The notes under the pieces: model-generated
Seen by the model: only the letters and a program-made list of their open reading frames with translations
Database searches by the model: none
Told to the model about the DNA's origin: nothing
Translations under genes and position numbers: made by a program
In this document: piece after piece, positions 39,178 to 44,662 of the stretch
How positions within the stretch are numbered: the stretch's first letter is position 1
How the letters are laid out: each line of letters opens with the position of its first letter
Assembly: GCA_018825365.1 (NCBI GenBank)
Contig: JAHJEV010000003.1
Location: forward strand, 317,387 to 381,386
DNA from: Patescibacteria group bacterium
GTDB lineage: Bacteria; Patescibacteriota; WWE3; UBA101185; UBA10185
Length of the DNA: 64,000 nt
Direction of reading: 5' to 3'

Positions 39178-40389
39178 TTACTCTTTGTCCGCAACTTGTT
39201 TTGCAGCGGCAGTTTCATCAGATTTAGAAGCCTCTTCTTCTGCTGGTTCCTCTATTGGTTCTTCCGTCTTTTCCATTGCGGCTTCGACTGCGGCCTTCTC
39301 TTCGGCTTTAGCTTGCTTTTTTACTTCCTCAGCATCATTGAATTTCTTTATTTCAGCATCCCAGACTCCGACAACCTTGTCACTTGTCGATTCCCTAACC
39401 GAGCCACCTTGTACAGCATCGCTTGAAAATACACCAGCAATTCCCTTAATATCGATCTTCCATTTAGTAAGTTTATTAGCTAATCTTGCGTTTTGGCCTT
39501 CTTTTCCGATTGCCAAGCTTTGCTGATCTTCAGGAACAGTAACTGTTGCTCTCTTCTCTGCCTGATCAAGCTCAACTTCTGATACTTTTGCGGGTGACAA
39601 ACTGGAAGCAACAAATTTTTCGGTGTTGTTTGAAAATGGAACAATGTCAATCTTTTCTCCAAAAAGCTCTGAAATTATTGACTGAACTCTTACACCTTTT
39701 TGTCCCACACAGCTTCCAACCGGATCAACCTTTTCATCTTTTGAAGAAACGGCCATTTTAGTCCTGGAACCGGCCTCTCTTGCTATTGCTTCTATAACGA
39801 CAACTCCGGAGGCAATTTCAGGAACTTCCTGCTCAAAAAGTCTCACAATAAATTTTGGATCTGCCCTTGATACGATTATCTCAGTTCCCCTCGGAGTATC
39901 TTGAATATCTTTAACCAAAACCTTAAGTCTCTGATTCATTCTGTAATTTTCGGCAGGAACCTGCTCGCCTCTTGGCATCACACCCTGGCTTCTGTTTTTG
40001 CCCATATCCAAGGTTATAATTCCCTTTTCCATTCTAAATACTATTCCAGTTACTATCTGACCTATTTTTTCTTTAAATTCCGCCGTGACAACGTCCTTTT
40101 CTGTTTCTCTGATCTTTTGAACCATTACTTGTTTAGCAGTTTGGGCCGCTATTCTTCCAAAACCGGACGGAGTTACGTCCATTCCGTCTTTTAATATTCT
40201 TACCTCACCTGTATCGGGGTTTAGATCCACAATAATTTCCTCAAGTTCAACTACTTCTCCAATTTCTTTTCTATCTTTTTTATATGCTGTAGCTAAAGCT
40301 GATTTAACCGATTCAAGAACACTTTCTACAGTTATTCCTTTTTCGGCTGCAACCTGACTTATCGCTGCATTAAATTCTGACATTGCCAT
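39178..40389 (-). CDS. nusA: Transcription termination/antitermination factor NusA with acidic C-terminal tail
   Basis: 403 aa; S1 and tandem KH domains; C-terminal Glu/Ala/Lys-rich tail. Confidence 0.9.
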   Translation of the reverse strand: MAMSEFNAAISQVAAEKGITVESVLESVKSALATAYKKDRKEIGEVVELEEIIVDLNPDTGEVRILKDGMDVTPSGFGRIAAQTAKQVMVQKIRETEKDVVTAEFKEKIGQIVTGIVFRMEKGIITLDMGKNRSQGVMPRGEQVPAENYRMNQRLKVLVKDIQDTPRGTEIIVSRADPKFIVRLFEQEVPEIASGVVVIEAIAREAGSRTKMAVSSKDEKVDPVGSCVGQKGVRVQSIISELFGEKIDIVPFSNNTEKFVASSLSPAKVSEVELDQAEKRATVTVPEDQQSLAIGKEGQNARLANKLTKWKIDIKGIAGVFSSDAVQGGSVRESTSDKVVGVWDAEIKKFNDAEEVKKQAKAEEKAAVEAAMEKTEEPIEEPAEEEASKSDETAAAKQVADKE

Positions 40390-40430
40390 ATTTTTCTACT
40401 CCTAAAACTTATAAACGTTGTAGTAAATTA

Positions 40431-40456
40431 TTAAAAAAAGTGGGACCGGCCCACTT
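40431..40456 (-). terminator. Rho-independent terminator-like hairpin downstream of the DGR reverse transcriptase
   Basis: On the minus strand, gcaagtgggccggtcccac forms a GC-rich hairpin followed by TTTTTTT; it lies between the RT stop (40579) and the nusA start. Confidence 0.45.
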
Positions 40457-40578
40457 GCAACAACTTTATTTCTTTACTACTTCGTTAACTTCTTACAACA
40501 ATAGGATACTATACCCTTGACAAAGCGGGGTCAACTAGCGGTATTTTGCTGACTTAGATCCTTTTTTCTTATCCGGGC

Positions 40579-41571
40579 TTATAAGTGAGATACTAACCTT
40601 GCAACCTCTTGTCGCAATCTATAAGTATTCCCATGAGAAATAAGCCCCAAATAAGATTGAGTGGTCTCCTTGTCACCGCCCTTATACACAATATTTCTAA
40701 ACATCCGCCTTTTAGTAGATGTCCTTAAAATTCTGCGATCGGGAAAGTGCACCCAACCGAGAAAGTCAATCCCAGACGCTACTGTTCTTAGCAGAGTTTT
40801 GTCTTCGTGAAGTTCCAAACGAAGGATTTCCCATAGAAATTCTTTGATCATGGGTAAAAGTCCTGCAAGTTCATTCTTATCGTGTGACATAAAAACAAAA
40901 TCATCTGCATAACGGAGATAAAACTTTACTTTCAAAACATGCTTAACGAATATATCAAATTTATTCATATAAATATTTGCAAAAAGCTGAGATGTGAGAT
41001 TTCCCAAAGGAATGCCTTTATTACCACCCGGGTCAAAACTATTAATAACCTCAGAAAGAACCCAAATAAGATTGTCATCTAAAATCGACTCTCTAAGCAT
41101 GCCAATAAGAATATCGTGGTCTATCGATGCAAAAAACTTCTTTATGTCACACTTTAGAACCCAGACGGTTTTTGTATTATTTTTTGAAACCTTAAAAGAA
41201 AACTTACAAAATCTATTAAGTGCGGCATGTAAACCTTTATCTATGCGACAGGAATAAGAATCAGCTATAAATTTTCTATCAAAGAATAGATAAAGTGTTC
41301 TATACAAAGCGTGGTGAAATAATCTATCCCTAACGGTAGCTTTATGAATAACTCTTGGCTTTGGATCGGAGATTTTAAATACCGTATATTTTGAGTGCTT
41401 ATAACTTTTGGTTTCCAAATCTTCATGTAGCTGAAGTATGTTTCCCATTAAGTTGCGTTCAAAAACCTGTACATCTTTTCTTGAACGCTTGCCATTCCTA
41501 AATTCCTTCCAAGCGACAAGAAGATTATCAAGAGAAATGATATCCTGATATTTATGAGTGAATTTAATCAT
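40579..41571 (-). CDS. Diversity-generating retroelement (DGR) reverse transcriptase
   Basis: 330 aa; RT motifs 1-2 (RVIHKATVRDRLFHHALYRTL, SYSCRIDKGLHAAL), the DGR-specific motif-4 variant LGNLTSQLFANIYMNKFD ([ILV]GxxxSQ rather than the group II QGxxxSP), and YLRYADDFVFMSHD; no maturase or endonuclease domains; adjacent TR/VR pair. Confidence 0.85.
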   Translation of the reverse strand: MIKFTHKYQDIISLDNLLVAWKEFRNGKRSRKDVQVFERNLMGNILQLHEDLETKSYKHSKYTVFKISDPKPRVIHKATVRDRLFHHALYRTLYLFFDRKFIADSYSCRIDKGLHAALNRFCKFSFKVSKNNTKTVWVLKCDIKKFFASIDHDILIGMLRESILDDNLIWVLSEVINSFDPGGNKGIPLGNLTSQLFANIYMNKFDIFVKHVLKVKFYLRYADDFVFMSHDKNELAGLLPMIKEFLWEILRLELHEDKTLLRTVASGIDFLGWVHFPDRRILRTSTKRRMFRNIVYKGGDKETTQSYLGLISHGNTYRLRQEVARLVSHL

Positions 41572-41657
41572 AAGTACATTACCCCCCCCCAGTCCAGCCC
41601 TCGTCTAAAAGTAACACGAATCTGTTACCGATAATAAAGCATGCTAAAGACATCTAT

Positions 41658-41978
41658 TTGGTGTGGTTTGGATATTTTCAAAAGCTTCCCAAAATACATA
41701 GGTATACTCTTGGACTCAGAATTGATAATTTGTTTGTAGAAATTATCGAAAACCTATCTTCCGCAAGCTTTTCAAAATCCTTAGAAAAACAAGACTTTAT
41801 AAATCTAACAATAAGAAAAAATGATACATTAAAAATTCTTGTGATGGTTCTTTGGGAGACAAAATCCATTGATGACAAAAAATATATTCTCCTGTCTGAA
41901 CAGTTGGATAAAATAGGTAAAATGCTCGGTGGCTGGATGTTACATTTGCAAAAACAAAACTCTCCCGGCAAAAGCTAG
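41658..41978 (+). CDS. avd: Avd-like accessory variability determinant (four-helix-bundle / 23S-IVS protein family), encoded antisense to RT and target
   Basis: 106 aa from a TTG start; the C-terminus LSEQLDKIGKMLGGWMLHLQKQ resembles the Avd/IVS family C-terminal helix (recalled BPP-1 Avd ...AEVGRILGSWIARVNRK); it lies between the TR and the RT. Confidence 0.6.
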   Translation: MVWFGYFQKLPKIHRYTLGLRIDNLFVEIIENLSSASFSKSLEKQDFINLTIRKNDTLKILVMVLWETKSIDDKKYILLSEQLDKIGKMLGGWMLHLQKQNSPGKS

Positions 41979-41997
41979 GAGAGAAATGAGAGGACTG

Positions 41998-42123
41998 GCG
42001 ACGAACAAAAACGAAGCGGTTGTTAGCATTCCAGAAGTTGTCGGGCTTACCATAGTAAGCGTAAAGCCAACGATCATCGTCATTGCGCTTGACGTCGAAT
42101 AGGTTCAGATCACCATCGGAGTC
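41998..42123 (-). repeat. DGR template repeat (TR), 126 nt, intergenic
   Basis: Identical to 42479..42604 at 114/126 positions (offset 481). On the coding (minus) strand the TR carries A at 11 of the 12 mismatch positions. In the VR reading frame the TR reads DSDGDLNLFDVKRNDDDRWLYAYYGKPDNFWNANNRFVFVRR, rich in AAC/AAT codons. Confidence 0.85.
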
Positions 42124-42356
42124 GTTACGTACAAAGTACCTTCTATACCACCACTTTTTGATTGCTCTTAAAGTTGAATCTTATTTGTGAACTAAATTCC
42201 CCCGGTACTCTGCACCAAGTATCCTCATTTTTTAAAGTTTAATACACCACTCTAACTTAAACCGTAATTTAAATTATTCCGGGTGTACGGACACTGGATT
42301 CGGTAGCAAAAACCTTAGTTGTTTGCGTATTCACCTAATACCAGTCTTATTTTAAC

Positions 42357-42403
42357 AAAAAAACTCCGTGCTTTGGTATAGAAAACCCAAAAACACGGAG
42401 TTT
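42357..42403 (-). terminator. Hairpin plus T-run downstream of the DGR target gene; either a terminator or a DGR-associated stem-loop
   Basis: Minus strand: stem aaactccgtg / cacggagttt with an inner tttgg/ccaaa pairing, followed by TTTTTTT; about 70 nt 3' of the target stop codon and between the VR and the TR. Confidence 0.4.
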
Positions 42404-42472
42404 GAAAGAGAAAGCTCAAAGTACAAAGACCAAAAGTTCAAGATCCAAGTGACCTAAGTTCAAAGAGCCAAA

Positions 42473-42973
42473 TTACTTGCGACGAACAAAAACGAAGCGG
42501 TAGCTAGCACTCCAGAAGCTGTCGGGCCCACCATCGCAAGCGTAAAGCCAACGATCATCGTCATAGCGCCTGACGCCGAATAGGTACAGATCACCATCGG
42601 AGTCTTTGATAGGCTTCATGGCAAAGATTAGAACCTCTCCCGGTTTCAGATCGTCGCCACGCTGCAGCAGATACTGTGCGGCTGCTTCATCCGGACACAA
42701 ATCCCAATCTTTTTCGCCGCCGGCTCTGTAGATGTCTCTTAACTCCGTACCGCGTGAAAATCCCAGCTCTTCAACAGAGGCATCCACTAAATCCAAGGTT
42801 TGTCTGGATTTGGTTACCTTTATCTTGCTGAGAATGTCTTCCGCCCAACCTGAAATCCATACACCGGATTCCTCCAAAGCCCTTCTCAGGGACTTTGCAT
42901 CCTTGTAAGTGCCAATTTCAACGATCCCAAGGGTATTCATGACTCCATCCTTTCTTTGCCTTAATCTAGGCAT
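42473..42973 (-). CDS. DGR target (variable) protein; small, no signal peptide, C-terminal VR
   Basis: 166 aa; the last ~42 residues (DSDGDLYLFGVRRYDDDRWLYACDGGPDSFWSASYRFVFVRRK) are encoded by the VR; the gene is visibly more G+C-rich than its neighbours. Confidence 0.8.
   Translation of the reverse strand: MPRLRQRKDGVMNTLGIVEIGTYKDAKSLRRALEESGVWISGWAEDILSKIKVTKSRQTLDLVDASVEELGFSRGTELRDIYRAGGEKDWDLCPDEAAAQYLLQRGDDLKPGEVLIFAMKPIKDSDGDLYLFGVRRYDDDRWLYACDGGPDSFWSASYRFVFVRRK
42479..42604 (-). repeat. DGR variable repeat (VR), ending 3 nt before the target stop codon
   Basis: Cognate of the TR 41998..42123. Mismatches (TR>VR, plus strand) at TR 42021 t>a, 42023 t>c, 42029 t>c, 42038 t>c, 42047 t>c, 42048 t>c, 42054 a>c, 42056 t>c, 42084 t>a, 42089 t>c, 42095 t>c, 42105 t>a. 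Confidence 0.85.
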
Positions 42974-43046
42974 AACAGTGGATAAGTGCCGTCATTATAC
43001 TATAGGTGGGTTAATATGGCAATGGGGATTTTTTCCTCTTGGGACT

Positions 43047-43970
43047 TTATTCCTCAAGATACTTTTCCAGTAACTCCCTTTGTTTTTTGTTTAATCTTTC
43101 GGGTATTTTCACCAGTATCTGAACAATAACGTTACCCTGTCCCCTACCGTGAATCTTGGGCATTCCTTTTCCTCTTATTTGAAATCGAGCCCCGTATTGA
43201 GTCCCTCCAGGTATTTTAAGCTTCGCCCTTCCGACACCACTTTCAACCGATGTATCAACAACAGGAACCTCAAGTACAATCCCTAAAGCAGCATCTACCA
43301 TTTTTATTTCTTTTGAAACCAAAACATCATCCCCCATAATTACGAAATCTGGCACATTTCTAAGTCTCAAGGTTAAAAATAAATCACCACTTGGAGCCCC
43401 CTGAGGACCCGGCATTCCTTTTCCGGCAAACTTTATTTCCATCCCATCTCTCATTCCTGCGGGGATTTTCACTTTTACTTTTCCGCTTTCAACATTTATT
43501 TCTTTTTCAACACCAAAAATTGCATCCTTAAAATCTATATGCATTTCGTAATAAAGGTTTTTGCCTTTTCTTGGGCGTCTTGAAGAAAATCCCCTAAACC
43601 CAAAAGCTTCTTCAAAAATGTCAAATGGATTAAAATCAGATCCCATGTCAAATGGGTTTCCGCCTGAGGATGAGTATGTGTATGTAAATGGTCCCCACTG
43701 GCCGCGATTAGCTCCAGAGAATCCTTCCGGACCAAATCCCGGACCAGAAGTGCCAAACTGATCGTACATATTTCTCTTTTGGGGGTCACTTAATACTTGG
43801 TAAGCTTCGTTTATTTCCTTAAATCTTTTCTCTGCGGAGGCTTTGTCACTTTCTTTGACCATATCCGGGTGGTGCTCTCTTGCGAGTCTTCTATATGCCT
43901 TTTTTATGTCCTCTGCTGAGGCATTTTTGGCCACTCCTAATATTTCGTAGTAATTTTTTGCCGTTGTCAT
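43047..43970 (-). CDS. DnaJ-class co-chaperone, type II/CbpA-like (J-domain, G/F region, no zinc finger)
   Basis: 307 aa; J-domain YYEILGVAKNASAEDIKKAYRRLAREHHPD; Gly/Phe-rich linker; C-terminal substrate-binding domains; no CxxCxGxG repeats. Confidence 0.8.
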   Translation of the reverse strand: MTTAKNYYEILGVAKNASAEDIKKAYRRLAREHHPDMVKESDKASAEKRFKEINEAYQVLSDPQKRNMYDQFGTSGPGFGPEGFSGANRGQWGPFTYTYSSSGGNPFDMGSDFNPFDIFEEAFGFRGFSSRRPRKGKNLYYEMHIDFKDAIFGVEKEINVESGKVKVKIPAGMRDGMEIKFAGKGMPGPQGAPSGDLFLTLRLRNVPDFVIMGDDVLVSKEIKMVDAALGIVLEVPVVDTSVESGVGRAKLKIPGGTQYGARFQIRGKGMPKIHGRGQGNVIVQILVKIPERLNKKQRELLEKYLEE

Positions 43971-43989: not shown

Positions 43990-44662
43990 TATTAAATACT
44001 CAGGAAATGACGTCCTCCCCGCATTGCACATGAGTACATGTTTATACGGGGTTTCCTTTGCTCTGCAACTCATGATAACAAGGAAGTGGCATCTTCTCCA
44101 AGGTCTTGTTTGCCTTGGTATGCTATGTACTTAAGTATCTTCTCCTCGTTTAAGCCTACGGTTGAAACATAGTACCCTATACCCCATATCCCACTTTTCT
44201 CACCAAAGATTCTGTCGATGAATTTAAAGTGCTTTCTTAAATCCTTGCTTGTCTGTATCTTTATTTTCTGAACAACCTCGGCTACAGAGTATTTGGGTGG
44301 TATCTCAATTAGCATATGTATATGATCAATGTTTGTATTGATCTTATGTATATACCAAGTGGGATATGTTCTTTGAAGTTTATGGATTGATTTTATCAAC
44401 TCAACTAAAACGTAGTTTTTAAGTATCTTTCTTCTATACTTTACTCCCCATACCAAGTGATACTGTATCTCATACACACTATGACTTAACATCCTTGTTC
44501 TCATGTTTACAGCATATCACTTCATGATATGCCCATTCGTCCATGCATTGCGTTCGCAATTCCTATCCCCTCGCTCACTTATGCATGGTTTCCTGTATGG
44601 AAACAACGAAAGATCCCCGTATAAAACGGGGATCTTTGACTGTACAAGTCTTGTACACTTCA
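43990..44662 (-). mobile_element. IS200/IS605-family insertion sequence (tnpA-only) with subterminal hairpins; boundaries approximate
   Basis: Y1 transposase ORF flanked by same-strand imperfect palindromes: gatccccgtataaaacggggatc (44612..44634), tgtacaagtcttgtaca (44641..44657), ggtttcctgtatggaaac on the 5' side, and ccccgcattgcacatgagtacatgtttatacgggg (44017..44051) on the 3' side. It fills the entire dnaJ-like/hup intergenic space. Confidence 0.65.
44070..44504 (-). CDS. tnpA: IS200-like Y1 (HuH) transposase TnpA
   Basis: 144 aa; HuH motif DHIHMLIEIPP and a catalytic-Tyr region KILKYIAYQ; size and sequence typical of IS200/IS605 TnpA. Confidence 0.85.
   Translation of the reverse strand: MRTRMLSHSVYEIQYHLVWGVKYRRKILKNYVLVELIKSIHKLQRTYPTWYIHKINTNIDHIHMLIEIPPKYSVAEVVQKIKIQTSKDLRKHFKFIDRIFGEKSGIWGIGYYVSTVGLNEEKILKYIAYQGKQDLGEDATSLLS

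Follow-up and report, generated by a model that had tools for sequence, protein, structure and literature searches.

A Patescibacteria-type diversity-generating retroelement with a conserved structured leader RNA in front of its template repeat

Introduction

Diversity-generating retroelements (DGRs) are already known to be common in the ultra-small bacteria of the Patescibacteria, or candidate phyla radiation (CPR), where the earliest survey of them was reportedly that of Paul et al. 2017. The present analysis concerns a very probable element of this kind at positions 40579-42973 of a 64,000-nt stretch of DNA, hereafter the window, from the metagenome-assembled genome of a Patescibacteria group bacterium (GCA_018825365.1, contig JAHJEV010000003.1, positions 317,387 to 381,386 of the forward strand). 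In 90% of CPR DGRs, a template repeat (TR), avd and a reverse transcriptase (RT) gene follow one another as TR-(avd)-RT, an arrangement named architecture B3 (Wu et al. 2018, PMC5758913). Patescibacteria DGRs constitute a clade of their own, clade 2, with targets that lack recognisable domains, a remote lectin-like variant being the prediction for CPR targets; the same work raised the question of whether such targets really are non-membrane proteins built on novel lectin-like scaffolds (Roux et al. 2021, PMC8144416).

In the DGR of Bordetella phage BPP-1 (mtd-avd-TR-brt; PDB 8ub7 series), an essential structured RNA, Sp, lies downstream of the TR (Handa et al., bioRxiv 10.1101/2023.10.23.563531). 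The same study predicted two elements across DGRs, CPR included: an Avd-binding stem-loop immediately behind the TR, with such stem-loops predicted for 207 of 278 DGRs, and a TR-flanking duplex, the upstream region analysed being the 40 nt that precede the TR. Structured RNAs next to bacterial RT genes have also been catalogued as motifs RT-1 to RT-19 (Weinberg et al. 2017, PMC5737381); one of them, RT-10, is situated between TR and brt of BPP-1, and a role in the DGR was proposed for it.

The cassette in the window resembles CPR DGRs (Wu et al. 2018; Roux et al. 2021, clade 2) in host phylum, in its gene order with an inverted avd, in having a small target without recognisable domain and a C-terminal variable repeat (VR), and in its chromosomal, non-phage setting; at the level of the protein-coding cassette it does not differ from known CPR DGRs and is a member of that class. 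It shares with BPP-1 the RT family, Avd, the footprint of adenine mutagenesis, the position of the VR at the target C-terminus, an A-free 3' boundary resembling the initiation of mutagenic homing (IMH) site, a stem-loop immediately behind the TR and a duplex that links the upstream and downstream sides of the TR. Unlike in BPP-1, an inverted avd separates TR from RT, a large structured RNA (218 nt) lies 5' of the TR rather than 3' (Sp, 140 nt), the TR RNA seems to be transcribed as a unit of its own, no GC-rich inverted repeat adjoins the IMH-like segment, and the target is a free 155-aa domain instead of the tip of a phage tail fibre. This 5' RNA, referred to here as the leader, is like RT-1 to RT-19 a structured RNA beside a bacterial RT gene, but it differs from them, and from RT-10 in particular, in lying upstream of the TR, in being specific to one RT clade and in matching no Rfam family.

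Results

The repeat pair and its adenine bias

We assign a probability of roughly 0.9 to the reading of the cassette as a chromosomal DGR of the Patescibacteria (CPR) type, with the order target-TR-(avd)-RT, that is functional or was functional until very recently. A sequence-only reading of the window had proposed a complete four-part DGR, and RT, Avd open reading frame (ORF), TR and VR were all recovered where it had placed them, in the minus-strand order target/VR, hairpin, TR, antisense avd and RT (Table 1). A direct-repeat search returned a single long repeat, the TR/VR pair, with 89% identity over 133 nt; blastn aligned its core (41998-42123 against the VR core) at 90.5% over 126 nt, with no third copy in the 64-kb window. 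As had been claimed, the VR forms the C-terminus of the target, occupying the last 42-44 codons of its ORF.

An alignment of the two repeats with mismatches tabulated by TR base bore out the adenine bias on which the sequence-only reading had relied. Read on the coding (minus) strand, TR and VR differ at 14 positions, 11 of which are TR adenines (eight A>G, three A>T; hypergeometric P = 5e-6, with 31 adenines in 133 nt). The remaining differences comprise one T>G (TR 42054) and two C>A changes at the edges (42124 and 41997), which mark the repeat boundaries; once the latter are set aside, 11 of 12 mismatches fall on adenines, which suggests only slight ordinary drift after the most recent homing event. 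Thirty of the 31 TR adenines occupy codon positions 1-2, with six AAY codons. The adenines of the TR allow about 7e16 variants at the DNA level and about 8e15 at the protein level. The same bias was found in related loci. Almost all TR/VR mismatches lie at TR adenines in 16 related genome loci, six of which present adenine-only mismatches (14/14, 16/16, 18/18, 20/20, 22/22 and 24/24), and 834 of 886 mismatches do so in 53 metagenome loci fetched through the RT. Between the window and its close relative L001 (GCA_964559585), the target gene differs at 36 of 132 positions in the VR (27%) and at 11 of 366 outside it (3.0%; Fisher p=5e-14).

Table 1. Coordinates of the cassette and associated features in the window.
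Feature	Position	Strand	Basis or remark
Terminator-like hairpin between RT gene and nusA	40438..40456	-	sequence
DGR reverse transcriptase, 330 aa	40579..41571	-	ORF, family matches
G9/C9 homopolymer, 86-bp divergent avd/RT intergenic region	41582..41590	.	sequence
avd, 106 aa, antisense to TR and RT	41658..41978	+	family matches
Post-TR hairpin, CTCTCCTAGC-TTTT-GCCGGGAGAG then TTTTGTTTTTG	41949..41983	-	sequence; overlaps last codons and stop of avd
Post-TR segment AGUCCUCUCAUUU, 3' strand of proposed TR-closing duplex	41984..41996	-	pairs with leader
Template repeat (TR), intergenic	41994..42126	-	direct-repeat search; 31 adenines, 28 in core
Structured leader RNA, about 218 nt, six helices	42127..42344	-	RNAalifold, covariance model
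Leader helix P1	42326-42318 / 42313-42306	-	
Leader helix P2	42288-42282 / 42248-42242	-	
Leader helix P3	42276-42267 / 42262-42253	-	
Leader helix P4	42215-42204 / 42140-42129	-	
Leader helix P5	42199-42196 / 42192-42189	-	
Leader helix P6	42174-42170 / 42157-42153	-	
Leader segment AAAUGAGGAUACU, 5' strand of proposed TR-closing duplex	42218..42230	-	pairs with 41996-41984
Putative extended -10 box TGTTAAAAT of leader-TR RNA	42349..42357	-	motif-level inference
Terminator-like end of target, hairpin and T7 run	42354..42403	-	inverted repeat, arms 42403-42390 / 42374-42361
Conserved T-rich stretch, repeated CTTTGNAC-like words, directly after stop codon	42404..42472	-	aligns across loci
Target (variable protein) gene, 155 aa from probable start; longest ORF to 42973	42473..42940	-	ORF
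Variable repeat (VR), core 42479-42604	42475..42607	-	direct-repeat search and blastn
A-free segment CCGCTTCGTTTTTGTTCGTCGC, same in VR and TR, IMH-like 3' boundary	42479..42500	-	sequence
Promoter-like site of target, TTGCCA-17-TATAAT	42994..43022	-	11/12 consensus positions; motif match only

At their 3' end the repeats share a 22-nt A-free segment, beyond which the VR reads AAGTAA and the TR CAGTCC, and a VR/TR split after this segment is also present in L001 and in two further loci, L002 and L003. By analogy with the IMH/IMH* model of Bordetella, the A-free segment may act as the 3' limit of VR replacement. The T-rich stretch that follows the stop codon might be a DNA-level target-recognition element; no stable DNA fold was detected directly after the VR (42404-42472, z=+1.1). 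A DNA cruciform adjoining the VR end was rejected, there being neither a fold nor an inverted repeat beside the IMH-like segment. The hairpin that the sequence-only reading had noted between target and TR does exist; it lies 72 nt after the VR and resembles the intrinsic terminator of the target rather than an IMH-adjacent cruciform.

Reverse transcriptase and Avd

The RT carries GIPLGNLTSQLFANIYM and RYADDFVF and matches RVT_1 with 74.9 bits; of its motifs PLGNLTSQ and YADD, relatives keep LGNLTSQ and YADD. Its best relative of solved structure is the Bordetella DGR bRT (8ub7; E=2.7e-41, residues 10-310), the best match to a group II RT scoring E=6.5e-15; similarity searches thus place it, as proposed from the sequence alone, nearer the Bordetella DGR RT than group II or retron RTs. 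An alternative would assign the RT to a group II intron, a retron or a defence system and regard the repeat as a commonplace partial copy of a gene's 3' end. It has some basis in NCBIfam, whose top-scoring model is a group II RT/maturase at 133 bits, well short of the cut-off of 300; Drt and retron models match weakly and no DGR RT model is among the matches. Among solved relatives the Bordetella DGR RT nonetheless leads by 26 orders of magnitude, Rfam returned neither an intron RNA nor a retron msr/msd for 40300-43100 at E<=1, an avd gene is adjacent, and adenine-specific, codon-position-biased mismatches recur in more than 60 loci. This alternative is refuted by the adenine bias, in the window and in its relatives, together with the bRT similarity, and we consider its probability negligible.

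The Avd-like ORF that had been claimed lies just above the Pfam bAvd cut-off (40.4 bits against 40) and matches the PHROG family 'Avd protein of DGR' at 2e-13. Comparison of coding sequences indicates that RT and avd are under purifying selection, with a dN/dS of about 0.1 (0.09-0.13 for the RT; 0.11 for the 106-aa part of avd against L002). The G9/C9 tract in the intergenic region and its surroundings show indels of 2-5 nt among the window, L001 and L002. A frameshifted, longer Avd, initiated at an ATG that lies opposite the RT start and switched in phase by the C9 tract, was largely rejected, because the indels are not simple homopolymer changes and the short avd start (M-x-W) recurs in distant loci.

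Chromosomal setting and mosaic evolution

The cassette occupies the same site, between the same dnaJ-like and nusA genes, in L001, whose flanks are 97-98% identical to those of the window, and in the metagenome contig L032, which is syntenic at 92.5% identity. The cassette is hence resident in the lineage and not a fresh island, and the option of a recently acquired island, which the sequence-only reading had entertained, does not hold. Related cassettes do occur in other contexts, L002 being one example, which points to mobility over longer distances. At least 13 genome loci with a homologue of the window target share the gene order of the cassette, and this order, TR-(avd)-RT with an oppositely oriented avd, is that of architecture B3. 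Since this architecture is standard in CPR DGRs, the inverted avd is not unusual, and the cassette constitutes a further example of an already catalogued class.

Between the window and L001, the flanks, the N-terminal part of the target and the leader are 97-98% identical. Across TR-avd-RT (about 42100 to 40495) identity is lowered to about 82%, with 97% before the block and 98% behind it, and dS amounts to 0.90 for the RT and to 0.047 for the target outside the VR. The drop in identity exactly over the module, combined with the contrast in dS, suggests that TR-avd-RT was probably replaced by recombination between strains. Faster evolution of the block was rejected, as the excess divergence resides in dS. 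The upstream junction of the swapped block falls at the leader, which, being nearly invariant between otherwise diverged cassettes, may serve as a recombination junction for such swaps.

An orphan locus in L003 (6001-6970), from the same metagenome as the complete cassette L002, contains a target, a leader 97% identical to that of the window and a TR, with no post-TR hairpin, avd or RT within 6 kb, and 9 of its 23 TR/VR mismatches fall outside adenines. This locus may be a remnant in decay, or may hold a template that is used in trans.

In the wider neighbourhood, an IS200/IS605-type Y1 transposase lies at 44008-44598, between the dnaJ-like and HU-like genes, with its tnpA ORF at 44070-44504 on the minus strand (Pfam Y1_Tnp, E=1.8e-27). 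It is a recent insertion in the window strain, since L032 joins the equivalent of window position 44007 directly to that of 44599. The plus strand of the 64-kb window contains 14035 C and 10609 G, long ORFs lie nearly all on the minus strand, and no tRNA genes are present.

Possible decay of the cassette

Several observations weigh against a working element or speak for a decaying DGR, one that diversified its target in the past and no longer works. Positions 1-17 of the Avd profile are encoded in frame upstream of the TTG start of avd, without a canonical start codon, additional frameshifts occur there in L001, and the NCBIfam model DivGenRetAVD scores the protein at 56.6 bits, below its cut-off of 80. 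The window TR has lost adenines relative to L001 and L002 (31, against 34-36 in relatives), contains two AAG codons able to mutate to TAG, and differs from the VR at the one T>G position described above. The target has lost some 45 N-terminal residues (~138 nt), missing in the window and L001 and present in most homologues; the deletion maps to 42926-42940 of the window, against 1499-1648 of L032. Orphan remnants occur in the family, L003 among them with its missing avd and RT and its non-adenine mismatches, and no VR variants of the exact window target protein are on record, its 90% cluster consisting of one member.

The T>G site is best explained as a later A>T change in the window TR, given that the TRs of relatives present AAY at that codon, and the 155 aa remaining in the target correspond to the compact domain of its structure model. 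The short avd start is the first available start in four distant loci (L009, L020, L025 and L028), which together with the dN/dS of 0.11 led us to treat avd as intact, with this caveat. An intact RT and 106-aa avd evolving at a dN/dS of about 0.1, the concentration of internal mismatches at adenines, and a leader, closing duplex and post-TR hairpin that are intact, with a leader score at the top of the family, all speak against decay, which we regard as improbable.

A structured RNA in front of the template repeat

The 348-nt spacer between VR and TR is the best-conserved part of the cassette, and from its sequence it appears to be a stand-alone RNA gene. Between about 42385 and 42147, four loci show 93-98% identity, against 50-85% in their targets and about 80% in their TRs. 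A -10-like box, mostly of the extended form TGnTAnAAT, lies just upstream of the first conserved GG of the leader in 52 of 60 loci. RNAalifold analysis of the leader in 16 loci returned six helices with 45 pairs, 34 of which show compensatory changes; pairing is maintained in 97.8% of alignment cells, against 76% in shuffled controls and 38-47% with partners slid. In an extended set of 66 loci, pairing is maintained in 96.5% of cells and two-sided changes are found in 41 of the 45 pairs. This larger alignment (A9) was fitted to the covariance model and hence favours the structure of the model; the margin is large in spite of this. The strand of the RNA is fixed by frequent G-U pairs, and helices P1 and P3 form similar hairpin modules with UAAG/UACG-type loop caps. 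A search of the 64-kb window with the covariance model (R1) produced one match (42113-42344, minus strand, 238.6 bits), and each locus analysed contains exactly one, always on the TR strand and adjoining the TR. Within 40300-43100 no Rfam family matched at E<=1 (Rfam 15, 4227 families, RT-1 to RT-19 included).

Sequences on either side of the TR are proposed to pair with each other, the leader strand of this closing duplex being A-rich and located just 5' of P4. Across 52 dereplicated loci, cognate strands pair with a mean of -6.85 kcal/mol, against -5.23 for non-cognate combinations, and none of 20000 permutations was as good. Since P4 ends 2 nt before the TR, this duplex would turn the TR into a closed loop. 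The duplex is followed by a hairpin of 10 bp with a UUUU loop and then UUUUGUUUUUG (41983-41949), which looks like the terminator of the leader-TR RNA and, by analogy with described elements, may also be the counterpart of the Avd-binding stem-loop. Hairpins of this kind were assessed by per-sequence folds: every intact genome locus has one of 7-12 bp, with a U-run, 10-18 nt after the TR, the stem sequences differing between loci, and hairpin and U-run together are found in 52 of 62 loci. RNAalifold returned no pairs for the region 3' of the TR (alignment A6), probably on account of misaligned hairpin loops, and a helix of 4 bp that it suggested for alignment A7, which spans the whole RNA, between the start of the leader and the upstream arm of the post-TR hairpin was too short to be adopted. 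On the opposite strand, 41960-41978 encodes the last codons of avd (N-S-P-G-K-S-stop); through this overlap, the conserved 'QNSP' C-terminus of Avd may be constrained by the RNA hairpin.

The leader was present in 60 of the 62 metagenome relatives of the RT with enough upstream sequence (57-90% identity) and in all IMG/VR loci with an RT at least 45% identical, and was absent from all 73 distant phage DGR loci with an RT 32-38% identical. Only 21 of the 60 leader-bearing loci present a target matching the profile of the window target family, so that the leader goes with the RT clade and not with the target. Upstream of the RTs of L038 and L040 (60-63% identical), 3 kb yielded no leader match even at E<=1, and the arrangement there may differ. 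L112-L119, a group of IMG/VR contigs classed as viral, carry leaders and CPR-type DGR RTs 45-57% identical to that of the window, and may be CPR phages or misclassified fragments of CPR genomes; in one of them, L118, the leader lies downstream of a partial RT.

The post-TR hairpin and the closing duplex fit the two elements predicted by Handa et al. across DGRs. The 218-nt leader falls outside that analysis, which examined 40 nt upstream, and seems to be undescribed: in the CPR-DGR literature covered, which did not extend to Paul et al. 2017 or to the supplements of Wu 2018, no description was found of the leader, of its promoter and terminator or of the closing duplex.

The target protein family

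The target protein, identical to NCBI KKC62_02830 on a contig of 460 kb, most likely starts at the second ATG of its ORF, which follows AAGGATGGAG and is also the start used in the syntenic locus L032. The promoter-like site in front of the gene is conserved in L001 and L032, and the terminator-like hairpin behind it is kept in alignment A4. No Pfam, NCBIfam or PDB sequence matches were obtained for the ORF (42473-42973), and a Foldseek search against PDB and BFVD returned nothing significant. The earlier judgement that the target cannot be annotated by homology therefore stands for sequence matches and gives way in part at the level of fold: the structure model is confident and its similarity to C-type lectins remote, which weakly suggests at most a remote C-type-lectin-like variant (nearest comparators, the DGR variable proteins Mtd, 1yu0, and TvpA, 2y3c, and FGE/EgtB-type domains).

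A word-indexed search identified 18 relatives of the target, and a profile search 6138 cluster representatives (50% identity) at E<=1e-3, including 755 at E<=1e-30. Hypervariable columns are confined to the last ~42 residues of the family alignment, on a conserved scaffold ending in RFVFVRRK, and the near-identical targets P0006-P0013 differ in VR columns only. The target has no export signal and no recognisable transmembrane or other domain, and no fused Pfam domains were found in the ten longer family members scanned.

Discussion

The features described above can be assembled into a putative mechanism. A non-coding RNA of ~400 nt, consisting of the 218-nt leader, the 133-nt TR, the leader-pairing segment and the hairpin with its U-run, would be transcribed from its own extended -10 promoter (42357-42349), as the conserved motifs suggest. 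RT and Avd, expressed from the divergent gene pair, would bind this RNA in a manner analogous to the Bordetella bRT-Avd-RNA particle, and the RT would copy the TR into complementary DNA (cDNA), misincorporating opposite template adenines, a step whose footprint is seen in the sequence. The cDNA would then replace the VR, the 3'-terminal ~42 codons of the gene for the remotely C-type-lectin-like, 155-aa target, as far as the A-free segment, whose differing continuation in VR and TR marks a boundary that presumably limits the replacement. The outcome would be up to ~1e16 variants of a small binding protein without export signal.

Under the joint reading of these elements, the template RNA of CPR DGRs would be a stand-alone gene of ~400 nt with a protein-binding and priming scaffold 5' of the TR, a permuted counterpart of the Bordetella Sp, a tentative proposal to which we give slightly less than even odds. 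The function of the leader as RT-Avd scaffold is inferred by analogy, and its two YAMG/UACG-capped hairpins could act as RT or Avd 'grapples'. The leader could instead be a genuine structured RNA with another task, such as a cis-regulatory 5' region governing TR transcription or read-through, or a ligand of some other partner, the priming elements then lying 3' of the TR, in the antisense-avd region. All essential structure in Bordetella (Sp) is indeed located 3' of the TR, and the post-TR hairpin could be an Avd-binding stem-loop only, with transcription continuing past it. The U-run that follows the hairpin in most loci argues against continued transcription, and the position of P4 and the covarying duplex, which ties the leader to the first post-TR bases, argue that leader and TR form one fold. 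The leader moreover co-occurs strictly with this RT clade, and the orphan L003 keeps leader and TR together. We therefore consider a leader with no scaffold function unlikely, and prefer the scaffold reading at the tentative strength given above.

Taken alone, the cassette is one more example of a well-catalogued class, and the leader-TR RNA and the target family are the more useful outcomes. The target family, very large, without a Pfam model and without export signals, bears on the question raised by Roux et al. 2021. Current structural knowledge of DGR RNA derives from a single phage element, with its scaffold on the other side of the TR, and the leader-TR RNA offers a testable model for the organisation of template RNA in DGRs with inverted avd. 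If the proposed reading is true, the leader would found an RNA family of its own and would be indispensable, as a third component, to DGRs in the most DGR-rich bacterial lineage.

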